Origin: Eubacteriales bacterium
GTDB taxonomy: Bacteria; Bacillota; Clostridia; Oscillospirales; CAG-272
DNA: 64,000 nt
Assembly: GCA_045656745.1 (NCBI GenBank)
Contig: JAZORT010000022.1
Coordinates: 13,784 to 77,783, forward strand
Direction: 5' to 3'
The notes beneath the pieces are model-generated. The model searched no databases. It was not told where the DNA came from and saw only the letters and a program-made list of their open reading frames with translations. Position numbers and translations under genes: made by a program. Positions 13,804 through 14,446 of this stretch are shown piece by piece; position 1 is the first letter of the stretch; each line of letters opens with the position of its first letter.

Positions 13804-14007
13804 AACCGAAAAACTCCTTTCTCCACCGGAGTGGTTATTTTCTCCTTTCTGCCCGGTACACGATAGCACAGTAAGATTTCACCCCTCACGCACCCCACCA
13901 TTAAAAAGGTGCTCGCCTCTATGGAGAGAGAGGGCGCGCGCGCACCTCTGTGCCTACAACACATCGTGTTGCCAAGGAAAGTCAAGAACCGCTACTGCGT
14001 GGTGGAG

Positions 14008-14058
14008 ATTTATATAAAAAGTTTTTCCCCGTGTGTAAGAAAAACTTTTTATATAAAT
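14008..14058. repeat. perfect 20-bp inverted repeat with 11-nt loop
   Basis: ATTTATATAAAAAGTTTTTC (14008-14027), loop cccgtgtgtaa, then GAAAAACTTTTTATATAAAT (14039-14058). Confidence 0.85.
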
Positions 14059-14279
14059 ACGACCAGACGTTCTTTACTTTCCGCAGGGAATATGGTACAG
14101 CCTCGCAGGAAAAGGGGAGCCAACGGCACTTCGGAACCGTTGGGGAGAAACGCGGAGGAGTTTCTCACTCTGTCGTAATGTGCATAAAGTAATAAACACA
14201 AATTTGCCGTGAGGCAAAGAACAAACAACCGCCATAGCTGAAAAACCTCTTCCACCCCTAAAGAAATAAAGGGTATAGA

Positions 14280-14344
14280 GTGGGAGGGAGTCAGGCCGTG
14301 AGGAAAAGGAAAGGCGAGCAGCCGTTTTCCTCACGCCCTCCCAC
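14280..14344. repeat. composite hairpin (9-bp + 11-bp stems)
   Basis: GTGGGAGGG pairs with CCCTCCCAC, and CGTGAGGAAAA pairs with TTTTCCTCACG. There is an internal loop and a 17-nt apical loop. Confidence 0.75.
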
Positions 14345-14446
14345 CCACTCCGTAATCAACAAAAAAAGAAAAGGCTTGTCTATACCGCAAAGTATAAACA
14401 AGCACGAAAACTACGGCATATAGCCTTGAAAGGAGCATATCCAAAA

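Follow-up and report, generated by a model that had tools for sequence, protein, structure and literature searches.

What is the function of a strongly folding DNA region that encodes no protein and lies between small genes and a transposase gene? The question is raised by a 12,737-bp inserted element (2804-15540, + strand) in the window, i.e., the 64,000-nucleotide (nt) stretch of an Eubacteriales genome analyzed here, in which a non-coding interval at 13804-14446 (+ strand) separates a small opposite-strand gene from the ATG of an IS30-family transposase gene. An earlier note on this DNA had proposed the equivalent of a filamentous-phage intergenic region, a single-strand origin (sso) of a rolling-circle replicon, or a structured RNA controlling the transposase. 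We found the region to be a conserved chain of covarying hairpins with + strand polarity, set in a rolling-circle replicon and keeping its most constant part independently of the type of Rep or transposase beside it. We give an even chance to the reading that it is a cis-acting single-stranded DNA (ssDNA) region, namely a complementary-strand origin that may or may not be accompanied by a packaging signal, of an integrated rolling-circle and probably filamentous-phage-like element.

A conserved chain of hairpins ahead of the transposase gene

The interval, delimited by the sequence and its open reading frames (ORFs), is kept as a unit in 21 distinct related regions. On its left side, the small opposite-strand gene has a conserved start, the ATG at 13803, with an AAAGGAG ribosome site upstream, as read from the sequence. 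The extent of 550 bp given in the earlier note was right in that the region is non-coding, but the true interval is wider, and the hairpin stretch (13870-14425) sits inside it. When folded as ssDNA, this stretch reached -106 kcal/mol versus a shuffled mean of -62.7 (z -9.12), and its complement reached -110.2 kcal/mol (z -10.57), with 0 of 100 shuffles equaling the value in either case. The region is structured as first observed, folding well beyond chance, and its genome, a 1.75-Mb assembly with a completeness rating of 60%, contains it only once.

All of the hairpins reported earlier exist, either exactly where they had been placed or within 1 to 2 bases of it. A GC-rich imperfect hairpin (13907-13947, + strand), in which 13907-13916 pairs with 13938-13947, is followed by a Y-shaped module (13976-14082, + strand). 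In this module, an outer stem (13976-13989 with 14069-14082) goes with a small hairpin (13989-14005) and an AT-rich hairpin (14008-14058), the latter being in the window a perfect 20-bp inverted repeat (arms 14008-14027 and 14039-14058) around the 11-nt loop CCCGTGTGTAA (14028-14038). Two adjoining hairpins come next (14120-14166, + strand), the first pairing CCAACGG (14120-14126) with CCGTTGG (14137-14143) around the loop CACTTCGGAA, which contains TTCGG, and the second reading GAGAAAC-GCGGAGGA-GTTTCTC (14145-14166). They precede a mini-hairpin, TTTGCC-GTGA-GGCAAA (14203-14218, + strand), of the GCC-GNRA-GGC type, and a long imperfect composite hairpin with the conserved apex GC-GAGCA-GC (14278-14350, + strand) just upstream of the transposase gene. 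At 14374-14403, a 13-bp hairpin and then a T-run on the minus strand resemble a terminator for leftward transcription. The interval ends in the transposase start block (14415-14449, + strand), composed of the box GGCATATAGCC, an AAGGAG ribosome site (14430-14435), a conserved ATATCC, and the ATG at 14447; a mini-hairpin GGC-ATATA-GCC is found at 14415-14425. The outer stem around the AT hairpin and the hairpins at 14145-14166, 14374-14403, and 14415-14425 are additions to what had been listed before.

Relatives were found through a 750-amino-acid (aa) protein of the element, hereafter the ATPase, which is encoded at 10 loci in species-representative Clostridia genomes. Seven of these 10 loci share the order ATPase, small opposite-strand genes, non-coding region, and IS30 transposase. 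The region itself was matched by 19 of 212 other genomes of the window's genus, while an order-level sample gave the ATPase in none of 400 other genomes, and a metagenome scan gave 4 loci of 1.5 to 3.5 kb each that were too short to reach the region. A transposase gene lies downstream of the region in 24 of the 26 related loci examined (all except L039 and L040), and 21 distinct upstream-of-transposase sequences, including that of the window, were left after 4 duplicates were dropped.

The earlier note would have been refuted had the stems lacked conservation or covariation among homologous elements; they show both. For the long hairpin (14278-14350), a sequence-based alignment gave compensatory changes at 16 of 17 consensus pairs. 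Paired cells amounted to 87.4%. Column shuffles gave 67.3%, none of 500 attaining the observed value, and sliding the partner gave 48 to 59%. A long hairpin is retained even in L033, L034, L036, L041, L042, and L043/L044, where its sequence is altogether different, and the asymmetric bulges of the long hairpin are kept among relatives. L043/L044 and L055 likewise have an equivalent long hairpin in front of their transposase genes. In the middle hairpins (14120-14166), 9 of 12 predicted pairs were compensatory across 15 sequences; this module is missing in four close relatives (L011, L012, L019, and L029).

The Y module folded in 19 of 19 sequences into an outer helix around one or two AT hairpins, and the outer helix had 10 to 19 pairs in 18 of 18 sequences tested, with at least 10 different arm sequences. 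The top of the AT hairpin and its loop are nearly unvarying; RNAalifold on the module recovered only this top, with 12 pairs, 5 of them compensatory. The loop core of CCCGTGTGTAA is present in 18 of 21 regions, and the AT-loop motif was found in 16 of 213 genus genomes, a single time in each of the 16 and nowhere else among the 213, a reversed-pattern control giving 0. One public contig lacks 2 bases at 14021 and 2 at 14045, i.e., one deletion in each arm of the AT hairpin.

The smaller hairpins are conserved in their own ways. The mini-hairpin at 14203-14218 has an equivalent in 11 of 21 regions, always closed by C-G, with the loops GTGA (five regions), GAGA (three), GAAA, GTAA, and one GAA triloop. 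The arms of the 14374-14403 hairpin covary in L016 and L035, and the box GGCATATAGCC is found in 11 of 21 regions with GGC/GCC exchanged for GTC/GAC. The GC-rich hairpin reads AGAGGTGC-loop-GCACCTCT in relatives or has unrelated complementary arms, and by eye the arms differ yet stay complementary in L010, L033, L035, L036, and L037. RNAalifold on a MAFFT alignment of it gave 0 consensus pairs because the arms are out of register there, leaving this module without formal support.

Replicon setting and strand polarity

The element encodes a Rep (3980-5134, + strand) with an HUH origin-binding/nuclease domain (Pfam Rep_OBD, 1.1e-8) and an SF3 helicase domain (RNA_helicase, 1.1e-9). Rep was found in 5 of 5 related elements searched, and its N-terminal nuclease domain resembles the Reps of small circular gut genomes classified as Inoviridae. 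The hairpin GGCGCTG-AGGGCTTGTC-CAGCGCC (3564-3587, + strand) has GGTGTATT iterons on either side (about 3470-3650). In 6 of 6 elements, the loop of this hairpin, GGGCTTGTCC, is unchanged; the stem shows covariation in L053, and each element has iterons of its own. Hairpin and iterons are a classical rolling-circle double-strand origin, located 10 kb from the region and, on a circular map, about 2 kb downstream of it. By its Rep and its origin, the element is a rolling-circle replicon, and it therefore needs a complementary-strand origin. Because the region lies in an HUH-Rep replicon with a separate double-strand origin, an orientation-specific sso or a filamentous-phage-type intergenic region fits it best. 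The rolling-circle setting assumed in the earlier note held. The plus-strand nick site is outside the region, at 3564-3587.

Comparison with divergent relatives separated the region from both Rep and transposase. In L018 and L020, whose ATPase is about 50% identical, the initiator is of the Rep_trans type, the IS30 transposase and the AT-loop motif are missing, and a host XerD-like gene lies alongside. L055 (G450:C23:78000-96000), with an ATPase of 38% identity, combines a Rep of the G2P type (PF23343, 1.2e-9) with an IS3/IS481-like transposase that has rve/HTH_32/HTH_Tnp_1 domains. The loop motif CCCGTGTGTAA is nevertheless identical and equally oriented in L055, where it lies about 790 nt upstream of the transposase, whose gene is immediately preceded by a 22-bp hairpin. 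Since the loop is kept in L055 despite the other Rep and transposase, it is neither a Rep nick site nor the binding site of one transposase family, and its constant partner is therefore the host or the ATPase/membrane-protein module. A truncated element remnant in L056 (G600:C76; 1580-2160), next to gyrB, ends right after the Y module. With the Y module kept while Rep (HUH+SF3 or G2P-type) and transposase (IS30 or IS3/IS481-like) are swapped, these elements are built from exchangeable cassettes. This fits the module swapping of filamentous phages described in part of PMC6668415, which exchange replication modules and some of which use IS3 or IS30 transposases.

The hairpins also have a polarity. 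Loops starting with G and ending with A numbered 47 of 159 on the + strand versus 3 of 161 on the - strand (43 of 172 versus 5 of 172 under DNA parameters). This bias and the loops of the mini-hairpin identify the + strand as the folded one; the + strand also encodes Rep and most of the element's genes and would be the displaced strand nicked by Rep. C-G-closed G...A loops are stable in DNA as they are in RNA. The + strand was the more stable one in 17 of 18 regions with DNA parameters and in only 9 of 18 with RNA parameters. The 104 single mismatches within helices included 10 of the G-T type and 10 of the A-C type, so that G-U wobbles were not enriched. The region thus has neither the excess of G-U over A-C nor the better-folding sense strand of a structured RNA. 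We lean toward DNA-level hairpins on the + strand in view of the loop make-up, the mismatches, and the fold energies. For the proposed transposase-controlling RNA, the lack of G-U enrichment and of a strand bias under RNA parameters is a weakening, and we weigh such an RNA below as a less likely rival.

We infer that ssDNA is the active form of the region, that it serves in priming or packaging, and that its hairpins may divide these tasks as follows. The IS30-type transposase would excise the element, and Rep would nick the origin hairpin (3564-3587), displacing the + strand as ssDNA, in which 13900-14410 would fold into the hairpin chain. The Y module (13976-14082) with its loop CCCGTGTGTAA would most likely be the host priming site for complementary-strand synthesis, i.e., the sso. 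Either the long hairpin (14278-14350) or the AT hairpin may additionally serve as a packaging signal and keep transcription from upstream out of the transposase gene, and the last 35 bases would be the translation start region of the transposase.

Parts of this scheme have counterparts in known systems. The intergenic region of Ff-type filamentous phages combines a packaging hairpin, a complementary-strand origin, and a viral-strand origin. Like the region here, it has a viral-strand hairpin chain after the assembly genes (putative in our case) and before rep on the circular map, with a long imperfect hairpin of about 70 to 80 nt. Unlike in Ff, the Rep nick site is elsewhere in this element (3564-3587), a transposase gene lies between the region and rep, and a link of the ATPase to Zot/pI is unsupported. 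ICEBs1 is a conjugative element with a relaxase and a tyrosine-type integrase system, unlike the element here. The sso of ICEBs1 is similarly carried by a normally integrated element that replicates by rolling circle after excision, according to part of PMC4595007. Plasmid sso (ssoA, ssoU, ssoT, ssoW, or ssoL), as covered in part of PMC5703833, are likewise non-coding stretches of at least 150 nt with extensive intrastrand pairing, placed away from rep in a Rep/double-strand-origin replicon and with a conserved sequence in a hairpin loop. The same part of that source describes sso types as shared by plasmids with unrelated initiators, as the loop is here, and as orientation-specific and variable in distance from rep. 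Unlike a plasmid sso, the region, a candidate sso, spans about 500 nt with at least six hairpins in a transposase-integrated 12.7-kb element. The Spiroplasma filamentous phages of the genus Vespertiliovirus (PMC6668415) are also small elements with an IS30-family or, as in L055, an IS3-like DDE transposase. In the portion of that source concerned, these phages are without a Rep, whereas the element here has an HUH+SF3 Rep, an origin, and a transposase.

If correct, the ssDNA reading would add a new class of complementary-strand origin or intergenic region, and the loop CCCGTGTGTAA could mark such elements, rolling-circle and probably filamentous-phage-like, as a family in uncultured gut Clostridia. 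The region offers a testable case of an integrated ssDNA replicon that joins transposase-driven integration with rolling-circle replication.

Several observations weigh against this reading. The first group concerns the element as a replicon. The contigs of four public runs, all from one study, contained no circle junction, and no single-stranded or circular form was seen. Searches of IMG/VR with the ATPase and with its alignment gave no relative. The region had no blastn match among 72,556 plasmid (PLSDB) and 50,697 phage records, and in this it differs from known sso, the RSB and CS-6 consensus of ssoA not having been scanned. The ATPase does not establish the filamentous-phage likeness of the element: hhalign against two ZOT-annotated inovirus proteins gave probabilities of 0.9% and 4%, with only the Walker A motif matching. 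The second group concerns the hairpins. The shuffle control of the outer helix was weak per sequence, the observed length being reached by 0 to 28 of 100 shuffles. The long hairpin alone has no strand asymmetry, its + strand being more stable in 4 of 21 regions under RNA parameters. GNRA and TTCGG loops are classic RNA motifs, and the transposase gene directly follows the region and runs in the same sense. Finally, both arms of the AT hairpin read AAAAAGTTTTT in most relatives, which results in a conserved G-G mismatch (23 G-G mismatches were counted across all helices), the perfect stem of the window being an exception. This AAAAAGTTTTT unit forms a palindrome on its own, and L035 and L056 contain up to four copies of it in direct order. 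Because of the G-G clash and the palindromic repeated unit, the AT stem could reflect repeated protein-binding or bent-DNA duplex units, so that recognition at the duplex level or DNA bending could account for it.

The ATPase has four N-terminal hydrophobic segments and a Walker A motif. Pfam gave only a weak AAA_24 match, and the Atlas led to Zot clusters at 0.82 to 0.83. The AlphaFold model had a mean pLDDT of 41.6 and was unusable. Among 50 shorter homologs, no Zot domain was found; 49 had no Pfam domain and one fragment (P0012) had PF02699, and these homologs are only fragments of the same uncharacterised family. A filamentous-phage relation by way of Zot/pI homology of the ATPase was thus not demonstrated by hhalign, Pfam, the structural model, or the homologs. 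Since that relationship is unsupported, the filamentous-phage-like nature of the element is something that we infer, and we call it probable. In a phage collection, the ATPase gene had one distant, unannotated relative, MT835493.1, at 34.5% identity. Neither the AT-loop motif nor an equivalent origin hairpin was present in Dulem virus 75 and Inovirus sp. MT135299; in that search, GGGCTTGTCC occurred once, at 2122 on the minus strand, which falls within a gene annotated as encoding a replication protein (1788-2273) rather than in a non-coding hairpin. Three tiny + strand ORFs of the element (9321-9431, 10245-10403, and 10447-10557; 36, 52, and 36 aa) encode one hydrophobic segment each, and that at 9321-9431 has a basic tail, resembling filamentous-phage coat proteins.

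Transcript, duplex, and transfer explanations

The best-surviving rival, which we nevertheless consider unlikely, is that the region acts as an RNA of the transposase, either a structured 5' leader or a regulator, transcribed from the + strand and controlling translation or stability or shielding the gene from read-through. It would account for the polarity that the region shares with the transposase gene, for the GNRA tetraloops in 10 of 11 mini-hairpins together with the TTCGG loop, and for the conserved block of long hairpin, a mini-hairpin, and ribosome site immediately ahead of the start codon. The long hairpin ahead of the L043/L044 and L055 transposase genes also speaks for it. No sigma-70-like promoter was found inside the region. 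The upstream consensus promoter reported earlier (13561-13589) is real, with TTGAAA-17-TATAAT matching 11 of 12 consensus positions, is conserved in relatives, and has a conserved hairpin directly after it (13602-13622; the two together 13561-13622, + strand). In divergent relatives, terminator-like hairpins and a convergent small gene intervene between this promoter and the region, for which reason the promoter, although pointing toward the region, need not feed it. In divergent relatives such as L033 (1029-1150), a T-run terminator lies within about 95 nt of the promoter, and promoter and terminator suggest a small RNA convergent with the small opposite-strand gene. In the window's clade, there is no clear terminator after the promoter, in favor of a leader.

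The mismatches, equal in number for G-T and A-C, and the even split of strand stability under RNA parameters argue against a leader, as does the invariant-loop module being kept beside a transposase of another family. A scan against Rfam, which the earlier note had called for, returned no family reaching its gathering score. Rfam 15 gave 22 matches at E up to 10, all of them to microRNA or small RNA models far under the gathering score, and the best stood at 28.1 bits versus a gathering score of 97.

To a double-stranded control or insulator region we assign a lower probability than to the leader and regard it as doubtful. Here, the interval would hold promoters and operators for a divergent small-gene operon and the transposase, bent A/T-tract units to which a protein of the host or the element binds, and terminator hairpins. 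It does separate divergently oriented genes, its hairpin at 14403-14374 resembles a minus-strand terminator, and the directly repeated AAAAAGTTTTT units, with their G-G clash if folded, suit a duplex. Only weak 9/12 matches were found for a minus-strand promoter of an antisense RNA ending at that hairpin, and, against this reading, most hairpins of the region have no T-run on either strand. A box of the form GSCRTATAGSC stands both here and before the first left-end gene; along with its ribosome site, the box GGCATATAGCC is linked to IS30-type genes. Two features tell against duplex recognition more broadly. Complete sequence turnover with kept complementarity and asymmetric bulges is unexpected for sites of dimeric proteins, and the G...A loop bias of 47 versus 3 between strands would be meaningless for duplex DNA.

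We think it very unlikely that the region, or its right half (14270-14446), encodes a large structured non-coding RNA (ncRNA) partnering the DDE transposase and perhaps licensing excision or integration only in the circular form, in analogy to RNAs by which recombinases of other transposons are guided or controlled. To our knowledge, no RNA partner is known for the IS30 family. With regard to a guide RNA, the longest matches of the region to three known target sites were 9 to 10 nt, not above chance given a shuffled-target maximum of 10 to 12. These chance-level matches and the missing wobble signature weigh against an ncRNA partner. Least probable of all is an origin of conjugative or mobilized transfer (oriT) with Rep nicking as a relaxase. 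In its favor, transfer origins are typically structured intergenic regions that contain inverted repeats, and rolling-circle Reps can serve as relaxases, as for ICEBs1 in part of PMC5703833. Against it, searches of the element with Pfam, PHROGs, and NCBIfam gave no family of conjugation genes, the hairpin with iterons that is specific to Rep is at another place (3564-3587), and a change of Rep type leaves the invariant loop in place.

The inserted element and its ends

The element is bounded by a 15-bp target duplication, CTAAAAAAGCGCCCC, at 2789-2803 and 15541-15555. In three of the four public runs, contigs corresponding to the empty site join 2787 to 15541, with 15 ambiguous letters. The insertion target is the terminator hairpin of the neighboring minus-strand gene, and the duplications in two relatives are 13 bp long. 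The transposase gene (14447-15532, + strand) belongs to the IS30 family (NCBIfam NF033563, E 6e-66; Pfam HTH_38 and rve). Consistent with this family, the element has a DDE transposase, terminal inverted repeats, and a target duplication; its size of 12.7 kb and the length of the duplication are atypical.

The element ends share GTTATTTGCAA in inverted order, with AGTTTATAAT at the left end and CTTGACATTCGCA at the right end; an inverted copy of the right end, sought within the window, led only to the right end itself. The right end (15529-15540) carries TTGACA and the left end (2804-2818) TATAAT. Circle formation would place the two as TTGACA-N15 (plus any coupling bases)-TATAAT, a promoter close to consensus and directed into the left-end genes and Rep. 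In relatives, CTTGACATTTGCGA joined to TGAATAGTTTATAAT would likewise form a TTGACA/TATAAT junction. IS30 junctions have a two-base spacer.

In the length of its duplication, the element matches IS1630 of Mycoplasma fermentans (IS30 family; PMC3317919), for which the part of the source concerned gives long target duplications of 16 to 26 bp, versus 13 to 15 bp here. IS1630 inserts into inverted repeats, as this element does into the terminator hairpin of its neighbor; it is an insertion sequence of 1.2 to 1.4 kb, whereas the transposase here moves a 12.7-kb replicon.

After Rep, the element encodes secreted/membrane proteins, tiny hydrophobic ORFs, the 750-aa protein, and three small opposite-strand genes, followed by the region and the transposase. 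Two strong hairpins lie just inside the left end, one at 2855-2900 with a T/A-flanked stem of about 20 bp and one at 2911-2940 (GCAAGGG...CCCTTGC), the latter covarying in relatives. A 105-aa ORF follows these hairpins (2855-2940) near the left end. The boxes GGCATATAGCCTTGAAA and GCCGTATAGGCTTGTAAA, at 14415-14425 before the transposase start and at 2959-2969 before the first left-end gene, are alike, and this shared box may be an operator or a mini-hairpin.

In L019 (3450-3990), a fragment of a second related element, with a partial copy of the small opposite-strand gene, directly follows the right end, which suggests a nested or tandem insertion. The transposase frame of L012 (9104-10207) is split into two ORFs of 138 and 218 aa and may be frameshifted or decaying. 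An extra 110-aa ORF with the HUH-like motif PHYHIHL (3667-3999) lies between the origin and Rep in the window and looks like a partial duplication of the start of Rep; five relatives do not have it, and positions 3670-3984 are skipped in one public contig.

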